In this document: piece after piece, positions 297 to 13,506 of the stretch
How positions within the stretch are numbered: the stretch's first letter is position 1
Layout: every line of letters starts with the position of its first letter
DNA from: a virus
Lineage: Duplodnaviria; Heunggongvirae; Uroviricota; Caudoviricetes
DNA length: 30,168 bases
Strand: one strand, 5' to 3'
Virus record (IMG/VR): IMGVR_UViG_2778261166_000009
Location: 1-30,168 of that record
The notes under the pieces: generated by a model
Database searches by the model: none
Told to the model about the DNA's origin: nothing
Seen by the model: the letters and a program-made list of their open reading frames with translations, nothing else
Program-made: the position numbers and the translations under genes

Positions 297-1337
297 CTAA
301 GCTGTCGCGACATTTTTGCGACATTTTAAGGGGTTAAGTCGCACGGCATCTTCAAGGTGGCTTGGGGCGAAATGGGCATAACGCATTGTCATAGTGATGT
401 CAGCGTGGCCGAGAATTTTTTGCAGAACCAGAATGTTCCCGCCGTTCATCATAAAGTGGCTGGCAAATGTATGGCGCAGTACATGGGTAAGCTGGCCGGA
501 GGGGAGTTCAATGCCTGCGCGTTCCAAAGCAGAGCGGAACGCGTTATAGCAGGGTTTGGGGAACAGAGCGCCTTTCGTTTCAGGCAATTCGGATAGAAGT
601 TCATCATCAAGGGGGATTGTTCTGTTGCGCTTCCCTTTGGTTTTGACGAACGTAACTTTATCGCCTGCGATCTGAGAGCTTTTCAGCGTTGCCGCTTCAT
701 TCCATCTTGCGCCGGTCGCAAGACAGATTTTTACGACTAGCTCCAAGTATTTTACTTTGCTTCGTTTGCATTCCAGCAAAAGCAGCTCAATTTCTTCAGC
801 AGTGAGGAAAGCCATTTCGGTTTCATCAGTACGATACTGTCTGACGTTTTCCAGTGGGTTGGGGGCTGACCATTCCCCGATTCGTTTCAGCTCGTTGAAC
901 ATAGCCAGGAAGTAAGCATGTTCAAGGTTCATTGTTTTCGGGGAAACCTTGGATACTCTGCTAGTGCGGGCATAATGCCCATCAAGCCTTTTTGCGCGGT
1001 AGGCCGTGAACAGCTGGGCATTAAACTCTGTAGCTAGCGGGAATCCCATGCACTCTGCCGCCCAGGTCATAGCGTCTTTGCGCTTTTGACCATTGCGCAA
1101 AGCTACTCCGTGGCGTTCATACCACATTGTGATCAGGTCTATTAAAGTTCGTTTGTCCTTCCCTTCACCCAGCCAGGGCGCACTGTCTACTTTCTGAAGC
1201 GTATGGTTCTCAAATGCCAGGGCTTCCCCCTTCGTGGCAAATTTTTTACGTATGCGCTTCCCGTTCTTACCATTACTACGGTTGACGGTGTAGAAGTCGG
1301 CGATCCATTCGCCTGTCGGAAGTTTACGAACACTCAT
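297..1337 (-). CDS. int: Tyrosine recombinase / phage integrase
   Basis: C-terminal catalytic region with HxxR...Y-type motifs (LRHTFASH..., MTMRYAHF); sits at the prophage edge downstream of the repressor. ATG at 1337 preferred over the TTG at 1346. Confidence 0.85.
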   Translation of the reverse strand: MSVRKLPTGEWIADFYTVNRSNGKNGKRIRKKFATKGEALAFENHTLQKVDSAPWLGEGKDKRTLIDLITMWYERHGVALRNGQKRKDAMTWAAECMGFPLATEFNAQLFTAYRAKRLDGHYARTSRVSKVSPKTMNLEHAYFLAMFNELKRIGEWSAPNPLENVRQYRTDETEMAFLTAEEIELLLLECKRSKVKYLELVVKICLATGARWNEAATLKSSQIAGDKVTFVKTKGKRNRTIPLDDELLSELPETKGALFPKPCYNAFRSALERAGIELPSGQLTHVLRHTFASHFMMNGGNILVLQKILGHADITMTMRYAHFAPSHLEDAVRLNPLKCRKNVATA

Positions 1338-1338
1338 T

Positions 1339-1917
1339 TCATTCAATCGTCAGAACAATGCGGCCGATGATTTTTATATCGTCAATACCGCAGTCAAAAG
1401 CCATACCTACGCCGCTTACTCTAACTTTTCCCACAGGGATGCGTGTTAGTGTTCTAACGCTGGTTTTACCTTCAACTTCGACAAGCCAAACATCGTCATA
1501 AACTTCAGTAAAGTGTTGATCAACAATGTATTGCATTGTGTTATCAATCACACAGATAGGATTCTGCGGTAAAGGTTTGCCAGGTAAAAAAGTAACCTTA
1601 TCGAGCATTAGGAAACCAGACTCATAGAGTTTTCCGTCCACAATCTTCTTGCGTGGCAATTTCATGATGTCTAATTCGTCATCGTTAAACTTTCTACCTT
1701 GTCCAGTCGCAAGCCATTCCAGAGTAGCTCCTGTTTCAGCCATACATCTAACAACGATATCAGCTGGAAAAAAATCCCTCTTATACCGGTTAGCCAGACT
1801 GCTGCTTGCTATATCAAGATGTTCGGCTAGGGCTAGTTTTGTGTTGAATCCATACGCTTGGATAACTCTATCTAGTACCTCAGCTCCGCCATGAGAAAAC
1901 TCAATTTGTAGATTCAC
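1339..1917 (-). CDS. cI: CI-type immunity repressor (phage 186 CI-like, 192 aa)
   Basis: Size and position match 186 CI; N-terminal HTH-like segment; GTG start at 1917; its stop abuts the int start (cI-int operon as in 186). Confidence 0.65.
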   Translation of the reverse strand: MNLQIEFSHGGAEVLDRVIQAYGFNTKLALAEHLDIASSSLANRYKRDFFPADIVVRCMAETGATLEWLATGQGRKFNDDELDIMKLPRKKIVDGKLYESGFLMLDKVTFLPGKPLPQNPICVIDNTMQYIVDQHFTEVYDDVWLVEVEGKTSVRTLTRIPVGKVRVSGVGMAFDCGIDDIKIIGRIVLTIE

Positions 1918-2288: not shown

Positions 2289-2792
2289 ATGTTTGATTAC
2301 CAGACCTCTAAACATGCGCACTTTGATGCGGCTTGCCGAGCATTTGCAATTGAGCACAATCTTGAAGATGTGGCCGCTGCCGTTGGTATGAGGCCACAGA
2401 TCCTGCGTAATAAACTGAACCCAGCGCAACCGCACCGCCTGACCTGTGATGAACTTTTGGCTATCACGGATTACACCGAAGATGCGCGTTTACTGGATGG
2501 GATGCTGGGGCAGATTAACTGCCTTCCATCCGTACCGGTGAACAATGCAACAGAAGGCAACATGCAACTGTGTGCACTGAGCGCCACAGCCAGTGTGGGC
2601 GCGATTGCTGGGGAAGCCGTATCAGCTGGTCATATGACCGCCGCCCGCCGTACTCAAATTCTGGATCGTGCCCGAGATGCAATCCGTAGCTTATCCGTGC
2701 TGGCTTATACCGTTGAAAGCCGTATTCACTCTGCGCCGGTTTTGGCCGCTGCGGTGGATCTGGTCACAACCAACGCCACCGGCCTGATGTGA
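2289..2792 (+). CDS. cII: CII-like lysogeny-establishment regulator
   Basis: 167 aa ORF directly after apl, the position and size of 186 CII; sequence identity not verified. Confidence 0.5.
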   Translation: MFDYQTSKHAHFDAACRAFAIEHNLEDVAAAVGMRPQILRNKLNPAQPHRLTCDELLAITDYTEDARLLDGMLGQINCLPSVPVNNATEGNMQLCALSATASVGAIAGEAVSAGHMTAARRTQILDRARDAIRSLSVLAYTVESRIHSAPVLAAAVDLVTTNATGLM

Positions 2793-2984: not shown

Positions 2985-3413
2985 ATGGCGATTAGCCAGG
3001 AACAGCAAAAGCGCGGGCTGGAGCATTTAAAACAGATCCGCCGCAAATACTTCAGCGAAAGCAGCGAGGCCGCTGAATGGTGGGACAACTTGACACCGGA
3101 GTGGCGCGGCGTAGTACTTCATGCTGCTGCGGTTACTTCTGGTACCGGGGCATTTAAAGCCCATTTAAGCAAGTGCTGCTGGCGTGAGCTTTATGAACGC
3201 CTGGGCTATCGGGACATGATTCAACTGCGCCAGGGCATTTCACGGGCGCGGTTAACGTTTGAAGGTTTCGGCAGTTTACGTGACAGCGATTTTTCGAAAC
3301 GTACCGCGAACCGCCCAATCAAGAAGGTTCATCCAATTTATAGCAGCAGCGGGGTGCAGATGGTGGTTGCACCTCATATTGTCCAGAAGTTACAGCAACA
3401 GGGGAATCACTGA
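2985..3413 (+). CDS. Hypothetical early protein (142 aa)
   Basis: ATG with upstream AGGGGGA; stop overlaps the start of the next ORF (TGATG). Confidence 0.5.
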   Translation: MAISQEQQKRGLEHLKQIRRKYFSESSEAAEWWDNLTPEWRGVVLHAAAVTSGTGAFKAHLSKCCWRELYERLGYRDMIQLRQGISRARLTFEGFGSLRDSDFSKRTANRPIKKVHPIYSSSGVQMVVAPHIVQKLQQQGNH

Positions 3414-5136: not shown

Positions 5137-5986
5137 AACTCCGCTTAAATGGGTGGGCAGCAAAGCCCGCCTTATGCCTAAGCTGCGTCCGCACCTTCCA
5201 GAAGGTAAACGCCTGGTTGAACCGTTCGCAGGTTCCTGCGCCGTCATGATGAATACGGATTATGACGAGTATCTGATCGCAGATGTGAATCCTGATCTGG
5301 TTAATCTTTATAAGGCGATGGCGTATCACACTGATGCGCTGCTGAATGAGCTGGAGATCCTGTTTACTGCCAGTTCGTTAGGTGATGAAGAAAGCCGTGC
5401 CGTTTTCTATTACGCCGTGCGTGATGCTTTCAATCTTTCTGGTGGTAAGGCTGGTTCTGAATCTGTTGAAAATGCTGCGCGTTTCCTGTACCTGAATCGC
5501 CACTGCTTCAATGGCCTGTGCCGGTATAACCGCCGAGGACAGTTCAACGTCCCGTTCGGTAAGTACAAAAAGCCTTATTTCCCCGCTGATGAAATCCGCG
5601 CCTTTGCTGAAAAAGCGAAACGCGCAACGTTCATTACTGCCCACTATTCAGAAACACTCGATTTGGTTCGGGACGGGAATGACGTTGTTTACTGTGATCC
5701 GCCTTATCTGACTGAAAGCGACAATTTCACCGCTTACCATGAGCGCGGTTTTACGCATATGGATCAGGGGAGGCTGGCGCGTAAGTTGCGCCGTCTGGCC
5801 AGAAAAGGTGTGCCGGTTGTGGCCTCTAACGCCGATCTGGAAATGGTTCATTACCTGTACGCCGGATTTGAAGCCGTTCGCGTTAATGCCCCGCGAAGTA
5901 TTGGTGCCGCAGCTACATGCCAAAAGACGGCCGCTGAGTTGATTCTGAAGTCTCCGCTTGATTCCATTGTGGTGGCTTGTGCATGA
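5126..5986 (+). CDS. dam: DNA adenine methyltransferase (Dam family)
   Basis: N-terminal LKWVGSK and EPFAGS (AdoMet binding) plus the catalytic DPPY motif (VVYCDPPYL). Confidence 0.85.
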
Positions 5987-8004
5987 CGCTGGCAATAAAC
6001 GAACAATGCTATGCCGTTGATGCCTGGAGGCGGGAAACATTCGCGCCAGGCACTCCGGCAGACGCGACAATCACAGAACGCCGCCTGTGGGCTGTAAACC
6101 CGCAGGATTATGAATGGCGATCCCGGTACCTGCATGAGATACCCGACTGGTTAGCCGGGTATTTTGGCCGTCGTTACGAAAAGCTTTTTTCTGGCCGTGA
6201 CGGGCGTCGCCGTGCCAATACATTCCTGCGCAAAACAATCGGTGAGAATGTATTGCCACGTCTGCGCAAAGTGGCTGCGCGTTACTCGCTGGCCGCTGAT
6301 GCTGCTGATCTTCCTTTTGGTAAGTCGCTGGAGCGCTTGCCGTCACTAGACCGTCCTGATCTTAAAAAACTGGCTGGCCAGATATCTGGCTGGATTTCCC
6401 AGTCACTTTATGACTTCACCGAACAGTTTGATTCCGGCGCTGACGACGCCAGAGAGCTGCATCGCCGCACCCTGGAATCATACCGCCATCTTTGTGCCTG
6501 TTGCCTGATGCTGAATAACCAGCCGCCGTACTGGGCTGAACATGAGGCCAATGAAGGTCAACTGGAAATGCGTAAGGCGGAATCCGGGATACTGCGCATG
6601 ATGGCGCCGGAATGGTGGTACCTGCGTTTTAAACGTGCTCGTGATACGCAGCGCGAGCACATGGCCATTACGGTGGGACAGGTGCAAAAAGCGGCCAGCG
6701 CTTATGTATCTCGCAAAACACTGGGCGAATGGATAGACCAGAAAAAGCGGAATCTGGAGTTCTTTAAAAAGTTTGATCTGCTGAATGATGAGGGGCTGCG
6801 CATTGCACTGGACAGCATGGTGCACCGCAGCGTTGCAAATCCGGCGATCCGTCGATGTGAACTAATGGTAAGAATGCGAGGGTTCGAAGATATGGCCAAT
6901 GAAGAAGGGCTGGCCGGTGAGTTTTACACTATCACCGCGCCATCACGTTTCCATGCGGTTCACAGCAAAGGGGGCTTTGTATCGCAATGGGATGGAAGTA
7001 CACCGCAGGATACCCAGCGCTATTTATGCGGCGTATGGGCAAAAGCACGCGCAGCGATCTCGCGTGCGGGTATTCATGTATTTGGGTTTCGGGTTGTTGA
7101 GCCTCACCATGACGGGACACCGCACTGGCATATGTTGCTTTTTATGCGTCCGCAGGACGTGGACACGGTGCGCGATATTCTTTGCTATCACGCCAGAATT
7201 ACCGATTCTGAAGAACTGCAATCTGAAAAGGCGCTGAAGGCACGTTTTCATGTTGAAGCTATCGATCCCGCCAAAGGTTCGGCCACGGGCTACATCGCGA
7301 AATACATTTCAAAAAATATTGATGGTTTTGCGCTTGATGGTGAGCAGGACGAAGAAACCGGCGAAAACCTGCGTGATATGGCTAAGTCCGTTTCCGCGTG
7401 GGCTTCACGCTGGCGTATTCGCCAGTTTCAGCAGATTGGTGGTGCGCCGGTAACCGTCTGGCGTGAGCTGCGTCGGTTGCGGGATCAGGTACTGACAGAT
7501 CGCAGAATGGATGCGGTTCTGGCCGCTGCTGATGTCGGGGACTGGGCTGCATATACCCAGGCGCAGGGAGGGGCACTGGTTGCCCGCCGTGATCTGGTTG
7601 TTCGTCTGGCCTATGAAATTACGGAACAGGGCAACGAATACGCGGAGGACGTGCAGCGCGTACAGGGTGTTTATTCTCCTTTGGTTCCTGATTCAGAAGT
7701 TTGCACCCGTCTGGTTAAGTGGCAAAAGGTTGCGAAGTTGGCCGAAGCGCCAGCGGAGGCGGGTTTTTCTGGCGGCAACGCCGCCCCTTGGAGTTCTGTC
7801 AATAACTGTACGGAAGGGGGAACCCGCAGACGGTTAAAACTGGAATTATGCAGTCGGGGTTTTGATGGTTCTGATGAAGAAATAGCGATTCTCCTGCGGG
7901 GTAGTGGTTTGAGATTTGGTCAGGGCGCTCTGATTTACCGCAACGGACGGCTTAAAGAGACTCAAAACGAGCCATTACAGGAGCTGTGGCCGGGGTGGTT
8001 ATAG
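5983..8004 (+). CDS. A: Rolling-circle replication initiator endonuclease (P2 gpA-like)
   Basis: HUH-type motif HWHMLLF and tyrosine pair GYIAKYISK; ATGA overlap with the dam stop; position matches P2/186 gene A. Confidence 0.8.
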   Translation: MTLAINEQCYAVDAWRRETFAPGTPADATITERRLWAVNPQDYEWRSRYLHEIPDWLAGYFGRRYEKLFSGRDGRRRANTFLRKTIGENVLPRLRKVAARYSLAADAADLPFGKSLERLPSLDRPDLKKLAGQISGWISQSLYDFTEQFDSGADDARELHRRTLESYRHLCACCLMLNNQPPYWAEHEANEGQLEMRKAESGILRMMAPEWWYLRFKRARDTQREHMAITVGQVQKAASAYVSRKTLGEWIDQKKRNLEFFKKFDLLNDEGLRIALDSMVHRSVANPAIRRCELMVRMRGFEDMANEEGLAGEFYTITAPSRFHAVHSKGGFVSQWDGSTPQDTQRYLCGVWAKARAAISRAGIHVFGFRVVEPHHDGTPHWHMLLFMRPQDVDTVRDILCYHARITDSEELQSEKALKARFHVEAIDPAKGSATGYIAKYISKNIDGFALDGEQDEETGENLRDMAKSVSAWASRWRIRQFQQIGGAPVTVWRELRRLRDQVLTDRRMDAVLAAADVGDWAAYTQAQGGALVARRDLVVRLAYEITEQGNEYAEDVQRVQGVYSPLVPDSEVCTRLVKWQKVAKLAEAPAEAGFSGGNAAPWSSVNNCTEGGTRRRLKLELCSRGFDGSDEEIAILLRGSGLRFGQGALIYRNGRLKETQNEPLQELWPGWL

Positions 8005-8081
8005 CGGTGTAAGTATGTGAAAGGCATTCATTTGTCAGTAGATGGCAGGAAATTAAATTTCACAATTCGTGCTTTAAGGTG

Positions 8082-8101
8082 TACTGTATGTATATCCAGT
8101 T
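8082..8101. promoter_or_regulatory. LexA (SOS) box candidate
   Basis: TACTGTATGTATATCCAGTT against the consensus CTGT-N8-ACAG with one arm mismatch (CCAG); about 25 bp upstream of the ORF starting at 8124. Confidence 0.5.
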
Positions 8102-8123
8102 ATTTATTGCTTGTGGGGGCTAA

Positions 8124-8330
8124 ATGGATCTTTTGGAGGCGTCGGCACAGCTGGAACGCATTGAGTTATTGGCCAAAATTGCCCATATTTACGAAAGTAA
8201 CCAGAGAGAGAAAACAATCGCTTTGGCCTGGATTGGAGAGCTTGCGGGAGAGGTTCGCGAAATGGTAAAAAAGGAAGGGCAACGCCCCCAGAATGGGGGC
8301 ATTTTAGGCGGCGGGGGGCGTTTTCAGTAG
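8124..8330 (+). CDS. Small SOS-controlled protein, candidate Tum-like antirepressor (68 aa)
   Basis: ATG preceded by GGGGG; LexA-box candidate just upstream; lies after gene A where 186 carries tum. No sequence similarity to Tum was verified. Confidence 0.4.
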   Translation: MDLLEASAQLERIELLAKIAHIYESNQREKTIALAWIGELAGEVREMVKKEGQRPQNGGILGGGGRFQ

Positions 8331-8573
8331 GTCTAATGCCATCTGGCGCTGATCGGGTGAAAGTGCATTCAGTATTTTTTGCACCATCGCATCACCCGTT
8401 TTAGCGCTGGGGCTGAGAGTGTGGGAGAACGTCAGATTCATAACAAACGTGTGGCCACACTCAACATCTGAACAGGCGCAGTAAATATCCGCAATCTGCC
8501 GGTGCTTCCGGTTCGTTTTACGAATAACAGCCTTTGAGCCGCATTCCGGGCATTCGATTTTCAGAACTCGCAT
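8304..8573 (-). CDS. Ogr/Delta-family zinc-finger late-gene activator
   Basis: CPECG-x18-YCAC-x4-CGHTF matches the Ogr/Delta C4 pattern; ATG at 8573 has a GGAG site upstream; an alternative coupled start at 8627 overlaps the portal stop. Confidence 0.6.
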   Translation of the reverse strand: MRVLKIECPECGSKAVIRKTNRKHRQIADIYCACSDVECGHTFVMNLTFSHTLSPSAKTGDAMVQKILNALSPDQRQMALDLLKTPPAA

Positions 8574-8623
8574 ATTCCATGCTCCAGCTGTTAAATGATG
8601 CCTGGATTTTAGCCTGTTTCGCC

Positions 8624-9685
8624 TCATGCCGCACCCTTATCCGTTGATTCTGTGTAACTTAAATCAAAGTTAAGGTGTAGCCTTTTCGGTATTTCGGGAT
8701 CGCCGTTAACGGCCAGCATGAAACGGCGCTGGATGGGGGCTATTTCGCTTTTCTTGTAAATGCGTTCAGCCTTTTCAACATCCCCCAGTCCGGCAGTGTT
8801 CTGCGGGACAATACCGGCGAGGCCAGCAGGGAAACGGTGCGCGTTCAGAATGTCCTGGGCGCTGATGTTTTTGATATTGGCAAATTCATCTTTTGCAGAA
8901 ATATCCCCCATTTCGATGAACTTGATTGCATCCCCATCCCCGCCTGGTATGTTCACCAGAATAGTGGAGAAGTTACCGATACCTTTGCTGTCACGCAGCT
9001 GCTGTTCAATTTCTTCTTCCATTTCATCCGTCATACTGGGATCGCGGGTATAAAGAATACCGCCTGTGTGCGCACCGTTGTGGTAATAGCGGCGTCGGAA
9101 AATGACCGCTTCACTGTTAAGTAACGCGGAATGCACACCGCCGATGTAGTCTGGCAGTCCGTAGATATGCTGTTGCGGGTCATACATTTTGATAAAGATA
9201 ATATCTTCTTCTGGCCATACCTGCGGTTCCCCTTCCTGTAACACCACGTAGTCACCGGGTTTATCCTGGGCGTTATCTCTGACTTTGCGGCGGCGAATAT
9301 ACAGACCGGGCAAGGGTTCAAGTGCGATCACGTCGCCCCAGCCGTTACGAATTTTGGCAATCGCAATATCCCCAAAGGTTATATAGTCAAACGCTGCCGC
9401 TTCCAGCTGGTCGTGAATAAGCCCGCCCCCCTGATAGTCTGAAACAATCATGTTTTTACGGGCGTGAATGATGCCGCCGTGCTGACCGTTAAGATTAATC
9501 AGTTGTGCGAGTGCCAGCCGGTCAATCGGCTGGGTGAAGTGATCGGCGGCATTGTCGTACCAGATATCACGGTAATCTGTGCCGGTAGTCAGAACCGGTT
9601 CAGGTTTGCCGAATGTGATAATGCTCATCTTTTTTGATTTGTCGCCGCGCTGGTCGCGCTTAACAAAGCGTTTCTTTTTACTCAT
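8624..9685 (-). CDS. Q: Portal protein (P2 gpQ-like)
   Basis: 353 aa, leftward, coupled to the upstream terminase gene; Q-P divergent from O-N-M-L exactly as in P2. Confidence 0.8.
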   Translation of the reverse strand: MSKKKRFVKRDQRGDKSKKMSIITFGKPEPVLTTGTDYRDIWYDNAADHFTQPIDRLALAQLINLNGQHGGIIHARKNMIVSDYQGGGLIHDQLEAAAFDYITFGDIAIAKIRNGWGDVIALEPLPGLYIRRRKVRDNAQDKPGDYVVLQEGEPQVWPEEDIIFIKMYDPQQHIYGLPDYIGGVHSALLNSEAVIFRRRYYHNGAHTGGILYTRDPSMTDEMEEEIEQQLRDSKGIGNFSTILVNIPGGDGDAIKFIEMGDISAKDEFANIKNISAQDILNAHRFPAGLAGIVPQNTAGLGDVEKAERIYKKSEIAPIQRRFMLAVNGDPEIPKRLHLNFDLSYTESTDKGAA

Positions 9686-11457
9686 GCTGCCTCTTTCCTT
9701 ACACCCCAGCGGGATTTCGGTTTGTTTTCATAGTTAAGGGGTTCGTTATGCAGACCGTGGGTAATCGCCCAGAATGCCTCTGCGTGGCCGGTATCCTGGC
9801 TGCGGTCAGCGACAAACGTCATGGTGTTGCCGCTTTGTGTGGTGGTTCGGCGCACAGACATAAAGCTGGCGGCGATCTCTTTCATATTTTTATCCCACTC
9901 AATACGCTGGCTTTCCACCACGTCCACCGCTTTCAGTACCAGCTTATTTTTTGTGTTCAGGTCGTAACGAATGGGGACGGCCACGCGCATGGCAAAATGC
10001 TGAATGTTGTCAAAAACACCCTGGCCAATGCCGGTAACGTCCACCCCCAGATAAGTGAAGTTGTATTTTTTGAACAACTGCTCGATCTGTTTTGCCTGGT
10101 ACCGGAAGTTCATGCCTTTCCAGTAAATCACCTTCAGAACGCGGAACTTCTCCACGGCGAGCATCGGTGGGGCGATGATGACAAAACAGGACAAATCCCC
10201 GCTGCGAGCCGGGTCAAAGCCACCCCACACTGGCCTGTCACCGAATGGCCGCGCTGCATCAGGGTTGTGATCCTGCCAGGTGTCGATTTCAACTCCGCAG
10301 GCTTCCAGGTCGGAAAAGCTGAAAACGGAGTCTTTGCTGTCAACGAACACGCACATATAGAGCATGTTAAAAGTGGCGTCGTTGTAGCGGTTGCGAAGTT
10401 TCTCGATGTTCGCCAGGTTGAAACCGCCCGTAATGGCATCTTCCATCGTAATGACGTAGCGCCATTGCCCATCCGGGCAGAGTCGCCCGCCGTCACGCAT
10501 TTCGTTAAAAGACGGAAACTTAATGGCCGCACGTTTTTTACTGCCCTGTTTCCACTCATCGCCCGTCCAGAACGGGTAAGCCTGGTGCGTTTTTGCTGAT
10601 GGCGTTGAAAAATAGGTGGTACGCCACTTGTCATGTGTGGCCATTGCGCTGGCCACTTCGTTAAGTTTTGCAAAGTTTGGCACCCAGAAATATTCGTCAC
10701 AGTACAGGTGGCCACTGTAGGACTGGGCGGTGTTTTTGTTGGTGGAGAGAAAACGCAGTTCTGCGCCGTTGCTTAAGCGGATCGGGTTGCCGGTCAGCGT
10801 AATACCGAAATACTGCTCTGCAATATTCACGATGTAAGACCGGAACACTTCAGCCTGAGCCTTTGACGCTGACAGAAAGATTTGCGGAGCGCCGGTCATC
10901 ACCGCGTTTTCAAACGCTTCAAACGCAAAATACCAGGTCGCACCGATCTGGCGGCTTTTCAGGATGTTCCTGACAAGCTGGCCAATGTTATTGCGCAGGT
11001 GTTTCTGATATTCAAAAAGATGTTCCTCAGCCCATGCGTCAAAGTCCTCCTGCGTCAGCGAGGTAATATCGTTTTTCTTGTATTTCCGTTTACTGCGCGG
11101 TTCGTCGTCATTGTTGTCTCGTGCAGCTGCTTGCCCGGAACTCTGACCGCTGGCCATTTTCTCTTTGTGTTTATTACTCTGCGCACGCAGTTTCGTGGCA
11201 TGAGCAATGAGCATGTCCATTTCTTTCAGGTCTAGATCGGTTTTGTTATCGCGGCTGGCCAGCAGCTGGTAACGGCGTTCAATTGCTTCCTCTGTGCTTT
11301 CAAAACTGAGCAAATCCGCCCAGCTGTATTTCTCCGCCCAGTAGTAAACGATCCGCGCATTCGGCAGATTTAATTCAGATGCGATTTCCTTTGGCGTATA
11401 GCGGCGCAGATAAAGTGCGCGAACAACGCCTTTTAATTCTTCAGAGTATTTAGCCAT
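9682..11457 (-). CDS. P: Terminase large (ATPase) subunit (P2 gpP-like)
   Basis: 591 aa with an N-terminal HTH-like region and nucleotide-binding core; synteny with portal and scaffold genes. Confidence 0.85.
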   Translation of the reverse strand: MAKYSEELKGVVRALYLRRYTPKEIASELNLPNARIVYYWAEKYSWADLLSFESTEEAIERRYQLLASRDNKTDLDLKEMDMLIAHATKLRAQSNKHKEKMASGQSSGQAAARDNNDDEPRSKRKYKKNDITSLTQEDFDAWAEEHLFEYQKHLRNNIGQLVRNILKSRQIGATWYFAFEAFENAVMTGAPQIFLSASKAQAEVFRSYIVNIAEQYFGITLTGNPIRLSNGAELRFLSTNKNTAQSYSGHLYCDEYFWVPNFAKLNEVASAMATHDKWRTTYFSTPSAKTHQAYPFWTGDEWKQGSKKRAAIKFPSFNEMRDGGRLCPDGQWRYVITMEDAITGGFNLANIEKLRNRYNDATFNMLYMCVFVDSKDSVFSFSDLEACGVEIDTWQDHNPDAARPFGDRPVWGGFDPARSGDLSCFVIIAPPMLAVEKFRVLKVIYWKGMNFRYQAKQIEQLFKKYNFTYLGVDVTGIGQGVFDNIQHFAMRVAVPIRYDLNTKNKLVLKAVDVVESQRIEWDKNMKEIAASFMSVRRTTTQSGNTMTFVADRSQDTGHAEAFWAITHGLHNEPLNYENKPKSRWGVRKEAA

Positions 11458-12483: not shown

Positions 12484-13506
12484 ATGCACCTTAATAATCG
12501 TGCGCGGGATTTACTGGATAAATATTCGGCGGGGATGGCGCAGCATTTTGGCGCACGTGATACCAGTCGTTATTTTTCCCTGAATGACCCGCAGGAAAAT
12601 GCGCTGCGTCTTGCGTTGCTGGAGTCCGTCGAGTTCCTGAACATGATCACCTGTCTGGATGTTGACCAGCTGAGTGGTCAGGTGATTTCTGTCGGTTCTT
12701 CCGTGCTGCATACCGGCCGCAGTGAGAATGGCCGTTTTATTCGTCGTGTGGGTGTTGACGGTAATGACTATTCGCTGGTTGAGACAGACAGCTGCGCCGC
12801 GTTGCGCTGGGATCTGCTTTCGGTTTGGGCAAATGCGGGTAAGGATGAAAACGAGTTTTTCAATCTTGTCCAGGCATTCACCACACAGGCTTTTGCACTG
12901 GATATGCTGCGTATTGGTTTTAATGGTAAAAGCCGCGCAAAAACCACTGACCCGGAAGCCAACCCGAACGGCGAGGATGTGAACGTTGGCTGGCATGAGC
13001 GTATGAAAACGCTGCTGGGCGGCAATCAGATTATGACCGATCCCGTGGTGCTCGATGAGGCCGGGGATTACAAGTCACTGGATGCAATGGCGTCCGATCT
13101 GATTAACGCCAAAATCCCGGCGCAGTTCCGCAATGACCCGCGTCTGGTTGTCCTTGTCGGTGCCGATCTGGTCGCTGCTGAACAGTACCGACTGTATCAG
13201 GCAGCTGACCGTCCGACTGAAAAAATTGCTGCGCAGATGCTGGGGAGCACCATTGCTGGCCGTCAGGCCATTATCCCGCCGTTTATGCCGGGTAAACGCA
13301 TGGTGGTTACGCCGCTTTCTAACCTGCACATCTACACCCAGCGCAATACCCGTATGCGTAAGGCGGAGTTTGTTGAAGATCGTAAGCAGTTCGAAAACAA
13401 ATACCTGCGGAATGAAGGTTACGCGGTGGAAGTGCCGGAGCTGTATGCGGCCATTGATGAATCCGCAGTGACGATCGGCAAAGTCTCCGAACCGGTGGAG
13501 GGCTGA
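12484..13506 (+). CDS. N: Major capsid protein (P2 gpN-like)
   Basis: About 340 aa following the scaffold gene; ATG at 12484 preceded by GAGGGAG (the track start at 12469 is a TTG). Confidence 0.8.
   Translation: MHLNNRARDLLDKYSAGMAQHFGARDTSRYFSLNDPQENALRLALLESVEFLNMITCLDVDQLSGQVISVGSSVLHTGRSENGRFIRRVGVDGNDYSLVETDSCAALRWDLLSVWANAGKDENEFFNLVQAFTTQAFALDMLRIGFNGKSRAKTTDPEANPNGEDVNVGWHERMKTLLGGNQIMTDPVVLDEAGDYKSLDAMASDLINAKIPAQFRNDPRLVVLVGADLVAAEQYRLYQAADRPTEKIAAQMLGSTIAGRQAIIPPFMPGKRMVVTPLSNLHIYTQRNTRMRKAEFVEDRKQFENKYLRNEGYAVEVPELYAAIDESAVTIGKVSEPVEG

Follow-up and report, generated by a model that had tools for sequence, protein, structure and literature searches.

In coliphage 186, the p95-tum module is the SOS induction module and Tum acts by sequestering the CI repressor (PMC7708051). 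According to the 186 sequence record, LexA represses expression, full-length Tum inhibits the binding of CI to DNA, and N-terminally truncated forms only modulate induction. Lemire et al. (2011) described Tum as an antirepressor fused to DinI (PMC3121763). In PSP3 the antirepressor activity is encoded by the upstream half-gene, and both PSP3 tumA and Fels-2 were already covered in that work (PMC3121763). In the prophage DuoHS of Escherichia coli HS, either deletion of the 62-aa tum gene (ECHS_RS04495) or a lexA(Ind-) background abolishes induction by mitomycin C (PMC12055606). ECHS_RS04495 lies directly after gene A and encodes a Fels-2-type protein, of which STM2728 of Fels-2 is a nearly identical version. 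Small LexA-repressed antirepressors that bind a non-cleavable repressor are also found outside this group, namely GfoA and GftA of the Gifsy prophages and AntC of N15 (PMC3121763). These follow the same logic as the locus described here, but they belong to lambdoid or N15-type phages and act on other repressor families.

The present analysis concerns a 30,168-nt stretch of DNA, which we call the window. It is a P2/186-like prophage with matches at 100% in three complete genomes of E. coli, and the sequenced phages nearest to it are those of the ESSI2_ev040 group (genus Quadragintavirus, Peduoviridae). A survey of 5426 complete E. coli genomes finds the window-type region in 29. Strains EC101 and 20KM0223N have the tum region at 100% identity. 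In this 186-like E. coli prophage (Peduoviridae), the locus that follows gene A is very probably the SOS operon, cut to one gene, which encodes a LexA-controlled Tum antirepressor. The relevant genes are as follows.

297-1346, minus strand: int
1339-1917, minus strand: cI, 186-type immunity repressor (41% identity to 186 CI; PF07022 and PF16452)
2289-2792, plus strand: cII
5977-8004, plus strand: replication gene A, the upstream neighbour of tum (Pfam Phage_GPA, E 4.5e-104)
8124-8330, plus strand: 68-aa ORF, a short, tumA-like tum (phrog_698, E 3e-22; phrog_8554, E 6e-11; phrog_1993, E 2.7e-4)
8304-8573, minus strand: ogr, gene for an Ogr/Delta-like zinc-finger late activator (Pfam Ogr_Delta, E 9e-20)
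8624-9685, minus strand: portal gene Q
9682-11457, minus strand: terminase gene P

The position of tum, following gene A, is the order also seen in the maps of 186, PSP3, Fels-2 and DuoHS. An 83-aa ORF in another frame (8017-8268) overlaps tum and covers the promoter and the LexA box; relatives show indels there, and it was rejected as spurious.

The initial annotation had recognized a near-consensus LexA box at 8082-8101, lying upstream of a 68-aa ORF with a ribosome-binding site. Both the coordinates and the sequence of the box are correct, it is the only such box in the 30-kb window, and the gene behind it is real. The control elements can be listed in order.

8059-8064, plus strand: -35 hexamer TTCACA of a p95-like promoter, the same as the annotated -35 of 186 p95
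8082-8087, plus strand: -10 hexamer TACTGT; these six bases also make up the left half of the LexA box and agree with the -10 annotated for 186 p95
8082-8101, no strand: LexA (SOS) box TACTGTATGTATATCCAGTT, unique in the window, heterology index (HI) 2.33
8115-8119, plus strand: Shine-Dalgarno-like GGGGG, 4 nt before the ATG, read off the sequence

The box is separated by 22 nt from the ATG of tum (8124), and an in-frame TAA stands immediately 5' of this ATG. In the 186 record, p95 has the -35 TTCACA and the -10 TACTGT, and the LexA site begins at the -10, its first six bases being the -10 itself. The window box stands in the same register, the two hexamers being 17 nt apart in the window and 18 nt apart in 186. 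A generic sigma-70 scan of the window did not call the p95-like promoter. Across aligned related loci, however, the -35 TTCACA is kept, as is a GGGG/GGAG motif followed by ATGGA. Scoring of the site with a LexA matrix, which the initial annotation had proposed as a check, was done with an HI built from 27 E. coli SOS boxes. On this approximate matrix, the window box (2.33) is on par with that of 186 p95 scored in the matching orientation (2.35) and outscores 23 of the 27 training sites. Taken together, these features predict that tum is expressed from a LexA-repressed promoter in which the SOS box lies over the -10.

A short palindrome can arise by chance, in which case the ORF would be constitutive or silent, and CTGT-N9-CAG indeed matches 12 times in the window against about 3 expected. 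Against this stands the quality of the full site. A search of the 30-kb window with TACTGTATATATATACAGTA, allowing up to three mismatches, returned a single match, and none of 100 shuffles contained any match. Similarly, no shuffle out of 200 equalled the HI of the window box, and the second-best site in the window reaches only HI 9.9. Moreover, the box hardly differs from the LexA site annotated at the SOS-dependent 186 p95, and it recurs at the same distance from tum in relatives while its central bases vary. A chance origin is thus scarcely credible. The second-best site itself (TACTGGATAAATATTCGGCG, 12512-12531) falls where the capsid gene region begins and is probably fortuitous.

The recurrence of the box was assessed in 187 non-redundant loci that carry three types of Tum, and 183 of them have, in the 160 nt upstream of tum, a box whose HI does not exceed 8. 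Over the 1.28 Mb that all loci comprise, there are only 80 sites of HI 7.5 or less, nearly all of them upstream of tum. In window-type loci, drawn from genome and viral collections, the box has an HI of 0.6-7.5 and lies 14-27 nt 5' of the start codon, and its central bases differ from locus to locus. The sole window-type exception, locus L020, has an insertion of about 1.3 kb inside the LexA box. This insertion (8022-9337 of IMGVR_UViG_2791354791_000011; equivalent to window positions 8088-8095) contains a gene for a 406-aa transposase and sits between the two copies of an 8-bp duplication (ATGTATAT). It is putatively an ISL3-family insertion sequence. The prophage is otherwise near-identical to the window (CI 100%, gene A 99%); its tum is cut off from the promoter, and it may therefore be non-inducible or misregulated.

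The arrangement of LexA sites differs somewhat among the relatives. The tum genes of DuoHS (locus L077, 9550-9595) and Fels-2 (locus L012) are each preceded by two overlapping LexA boxes (TACTGTAAATATAAACAGTGGTTATACATACAGTA), whereas the window and 186 have one. Two overlapping LexA boxes resemble the layout of colicin promoters. DuoHS has a further good LexA-like site (3335-3354 of the same locus, HI 3.7) between int and a small hypothetical gene adjoining cI, and the window has no equivalent of it. In the intergenic region between cI and apl, the window carries a perfect palindrome, CTGTATTGCCGTACAG, at 1999-2014. It has the form CTGT...ACAG but was rejected as a LexA box on its HI of 13.3; the palindrome may be an operator for CI or Apl.

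The 68-aa ORF is a real gene because it matches phrog_698, has 65 homologues and shows a codon-position bias, substitutions at positions 1, 2 and 3 numbering 497, 337 and 1019 among 47 distinct relatives. The homologues are all from Enterobacteriaceae (Escherichia, Citrobacter, Salmonella, Pluralibacter, Raoultella and Cronobacter), and all are without a gene name. Of the first 39 residues, 17 are invariant, and the conserved positions include L4, E5, L10-L16, A33, L34, W36, I37 and E39. The initial annotation had seen no similarity to Tum, a statement that several comparisons contradict. BLASTP aligns window residues 4-41 with residues 5-42 of 186 Tum (32% identity over 38 aa, E 2e-5). The window ORF matches PHROGs 698, 8554 and 1993, as does 186 Tum with its N-terminus; among the short proteins, Fels-2 STM2728 matches phrog_698, the tum protein (60 aa) of Yersinia phage vB_YenM_06.16-2 matches phrog_8554, and PSP3 TumA matches phrog_1993. 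Furthermore, we made an HMM from window-clade sequences only and scored it on reference proteins and on 386 decoy stretches of the window. The Tum of ESSI2_ev040 scored 40.5 bits, the Yersinia phage protein 40.3, the Tum proteins of DuoHS and Fels-2 38, and 186 Tum 23.1, against 2.7 for the best of the decoys. PSP3 TumA scored 4.0, which is not significant, and is tied to the window Tum only via phrog_1993. A comparison by hhalign with an alignment of the Yersinia/186 type gave 99.2% probability over 52 columns, a partly circular value in that most members of that alignment were retrieved with the window profile.

On the strength of these alignments and profiles, homology of residues 1-52 is recognized both with the antirepressor part at the N-terminus of 186 Tum and with the 60-62-aa Tum proteins that stand alone in Fels-2, DuoHS and the Yersinia phage. 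Among 1.8 billion representative proteins, searched with a profile, 80 clusters were recovered, including Fels-2-type proteins, Yersinia-type proteins and a 65-aa protein of the 186 N-terminal type. Almost all of these clusters are 45-112 aa long; thus the short standalone Tum is the rule, and the 146-aa fusion of 186 is the exception. That the window protein is much shorter than 186 Tum (68 against 146 aa) had been noted correctly, but the suggestion that it is a distinct minimal antirepressor is not supported, as short standalone Tum has already been described in PSP3, Fels-2 and DuoHS and is the usual form. Judged in this way, the locus is an unannotated, putatively LexA-controlled member of the known Tum/TumA family. 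No sequence relationship was found between the 68-aa protein and GfoA, GftA or AntC, and a Pfam scan of it returned only DUF2989 (E 0.18, below the family cut-off) and no antirepressor domain of the Ant, KilAC or Bro type.

The window resembles 186 in several respects: the gene follows A, the promoter is of the p95 type (TTCACA/TACTGT) with the LexA box over its -10, the N-terminal ~45 residues are homologous, and the CI that goes with it is 186-type and has no peptidase domain. In contrast to 186, the window has no DinI-like C-terminal half, no internal starts for truncated Tum and no orf97 downstream. Specifically, residues 72-145 of 186 Tum match DinI, whereas neither Pfam nor NCBIfam finds a DinI-like domain (PF06183) in the window ORF. 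DuoHS Tum (62 aa), Fels-2 STM2728 (62 aa) and PSP3 TumA (60 aa) consist, like the window protein, of the Tum N-terminal domain alone, and their genes also follow A and have a LexA box upstream. Fels-2 and DuoHS have phrog_698 in common with the window; identity to the Fels-2 protein is ~31%. In these three, however, a separate DinI-like gene (tumB) lies immediately 3'. No match to the DinI of 186 or Fels-2 was obtained by tblastn in the window or in the 54 window-type loci. The window tum has neither a fused DinI nor a neighbouring DinI gene.

The Yersinia phage vB_YenM_06.16-2 offers a further comparison. Its short tum gene, so named in its annotation, has a LexA box of HI 1.2 upstream, and its product is 41% identical to the window protein over residues 4-47. 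As in the window, no DinI homologue is present in the 3.1-kb stretch fetched. Unlike in the window, other small genes follow tum rather than a convergent ogr, and the protein belongs to another PHROG.

In the AlphaFold2 (AF2) model, the window protein forms a helical hairpin (helices 3-21 and 27-53; mean pLDDT 80) with a tail that is disordered from about residue 54 and has a pLDDT below 50 from residue 58. The modelled hairpin, residues 1-53, would be the conserved antirepressor domain. A Foldseek search of the PDB with this model returned generic helical hairpins only (best E 0.76), and a sequence search of the PDB with the 68-aa protein gave no match.

The presence of a 186-like CI in this prophage, part of the original reasoning, is borne out: the window CI is 41% identical to 186 CI over 178 aa, contains PF07022 and PF16452, and shows no S24 peptidase domain in a Pfam scan. 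With no self-cleavage domain in its CI, the prophage needs an antirepressor to be induced by the SOS response. Tum and CI also diverge jointly. The window and ESSI2_ev040 are 97% identical in gene A and 98% in Ogr but only 40% in Tum and 44% in CI; similarly, 186 and PSP3 are 90% identical in A, but their Tum proteins look unrelated and their CI proteins are 32% identical. Simple linkage does not explain this joint divergence, as gene A sits between cI and tum. When the 187 loci were clustered, window-type Tum proteins shared at least 48% identity with each other and at most 38% with others, and the window-type CI cluster had at least 60% identity within and at most 51% to others. Window-type Tum is paired with window-type CI in 54 of 54 non-redundant loci, four of which have other gene-A backbones. 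On the window gene-A backbone, the contingency table of Tum and CI types is [[50,0],[1,17]] (Fisher p = 4e-15, a statistic that ignores shared ancestry). By these comparisons, the window Tum and CI form a specificity group of their own. The single discordant case, locus L097 (IMGVR_UViG_2617271157_000001), is the only one with an ESSI2_ev040-type Tum and a window-type CI, the latter 63% identical to the window CI; nature provides here a mismatch on which Tum-CI specificity could be tested.

At finer scale the picture is different. Within the window clade, Tum identity tracks that of the adjacent gene A (rho 0.79) and not that of CI (rho ~0.3), and near-identical Tum proteins stand beside CI proteins that are only 54-87% identical per domain. 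Residue-level co-evolution of Tum and CI, or a particular target domain in CI, was considered and is unsupported, rho being ~0.3 for the N-terminal and C-terminal CI domains alike. The weak correlation within the clade, together with the mismatch at L097, means that the pairing is supported at the level of types only.

These data bear on whether the product of this LexA-controlled gene acts on CI at all. It could instead modulate RecA or the SOS response in the manner of DinI, block host replication or cell division, or exclude other phages, with the prophage induced by some other route. Such a role would fit the lack of fine-scale covariation with CI, and it gains from the fact that antirepression is here deduced and that neither PHROGs nor RefSeq assigns a function to the family. 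We consider it quite unlikely, however, given that the homology is to the antirepressor half of Tum and not to the DinI half, that the DuoHS homologue is required for induction, that this CI calls for an antirepressor, and that the Tum and CI types co-occur. By homology, the 68-aa protein is expected to have antirepressor activity. The original proposal of an SOS-box-controlled, Tum-like antirepressor after gene A, beside a 186-like CI, is thus well supported at the sequence level by the box, the homology and the CI pairing.

A model for the Tum antirepressor can be put forward from the sequence and from 186. In the lysogen, LexA would occupy the box over the p95-type -10 and keep tum silent. 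Upon DNA damage, RecA would be activated, LexA would cleave itself, and the 68-aa protein would be made. By homology, its N-terminal hairpin would bind the non-cleavable 186-type CI and keep it off its operators, and the loss of CI from the operators would derepress the early lytic promoter, leading to excision and lytic growth. The prophage is therefore predicted to be SOS-inducible via an antirepressor. The known picture of 186-type induction is unchanged by this model, which nevertheless offers a likely function for a family that is of unknown function in PHROGs (698, 8554 and 1993) and labelled "hypothetical" in RefSeq, where, among the matches listed, the tum gene is a "hypothetical protein" or uncalled. 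DNA of the region with the related Fels-2/DuoHS-type short tum is found in 1254 of the 5426 complete E. coli genomes. In addition, the Tum-CI group could be used to test how a hairpin of ~50 residues recognizes a 186-type repressor, and whether DinI is dispensable.

Besides the lack of a DinI partner, a feature that sets the window apart from 186, PSP3, Fels-2 and DuoHS is that tum converges on ogr and overlaps it, the 3' ends of the two genes sharing 27 bp. The overlap region contains one further element.

8281-8303, minus strand: GC-rich hairpin with a 10-bp stem when the minus strand is folded, also called by a terminator scan; terminator of ogr and of the late P-Q-ogr transcript

This hairpin lies within the 3' tail of tum, at about codons 53-60, and is followed by ATTTT on the plus strand. 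In an alignment read by eye, relatives have canonical hairpin-plus-T-run terminators at the same position on the ogr strand, with differing stems. The codons AAA-AAx-CCC-CAG-xxx-GGG-GGx encode the conserved tail motif K-x-P-Q-x-G-G and are the terminator sequence as read in the frame of tum, and ESSI2_ev040 has another Tum domain with the same tail. Thus, read from the minus strand, the DNA of the C-terminal tail (8262-8330) is at once the terminator hairpin of ogr and the 3' end of that gene. For this reason the last ~15 residues (54-68), which are disordered in the model, are probably a passenger tail, dispensable for antirepression.

This arrangement also raises the idea that the active product is the SOS transcript, which would oppose ogr or the late P-Q-ogr transcript by interference or antisense pairing, the ORF being incidental. 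The convergence and overlap of the two genes and the presence of the ogr terminator inside the ORF speak for this reading. It is, however, the protein that is conserved, as seen in the 17 invariant residues of its N-terminal 39 and in the third-position bias of the substitutions. Moreover, the same family is found in Fels-2, DuoHS and 186, in which ogr has another location and tum is followed by DinI, and Rfam has no match anywhere in the window. We regard a transcript-only function as very improbable and retain the reading in which the Tum protein is the active product.

The overlap might still affect how much Tum is made, although we think this unlikely. The tum ORF passes through a bidirectional terminator hairpin, at which some of the SOS-induced transcripts could end ahead of the stop codon, giving non-stop messages whose product would be tmRNA-tagged and short-lived. 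Alternatively, tum could be silenced by late P-Q-ogr transcription, through collision or antisense pairing. By either route, the pulse of antirepressor would be self-limiting without the DinI module of other Tum systems. In the window, portal gene Q is immediately followed by ogr, read from the same strand, whereas in 186, PSP3 and DuoHS ogr/B follows gene D near att; from this location, ogr may be co-transcribed with the late P-Q operon. PGAP calls a longer version of the gene (8304-8627, minus strand, 107 aa), which overlaps the Q stop by 4 nt. At the other end of ogr, the T-run after the hairpin is displaced in the window (GTTGCCCTTCCTTTTTT), whereas that of the relatives is canonical.
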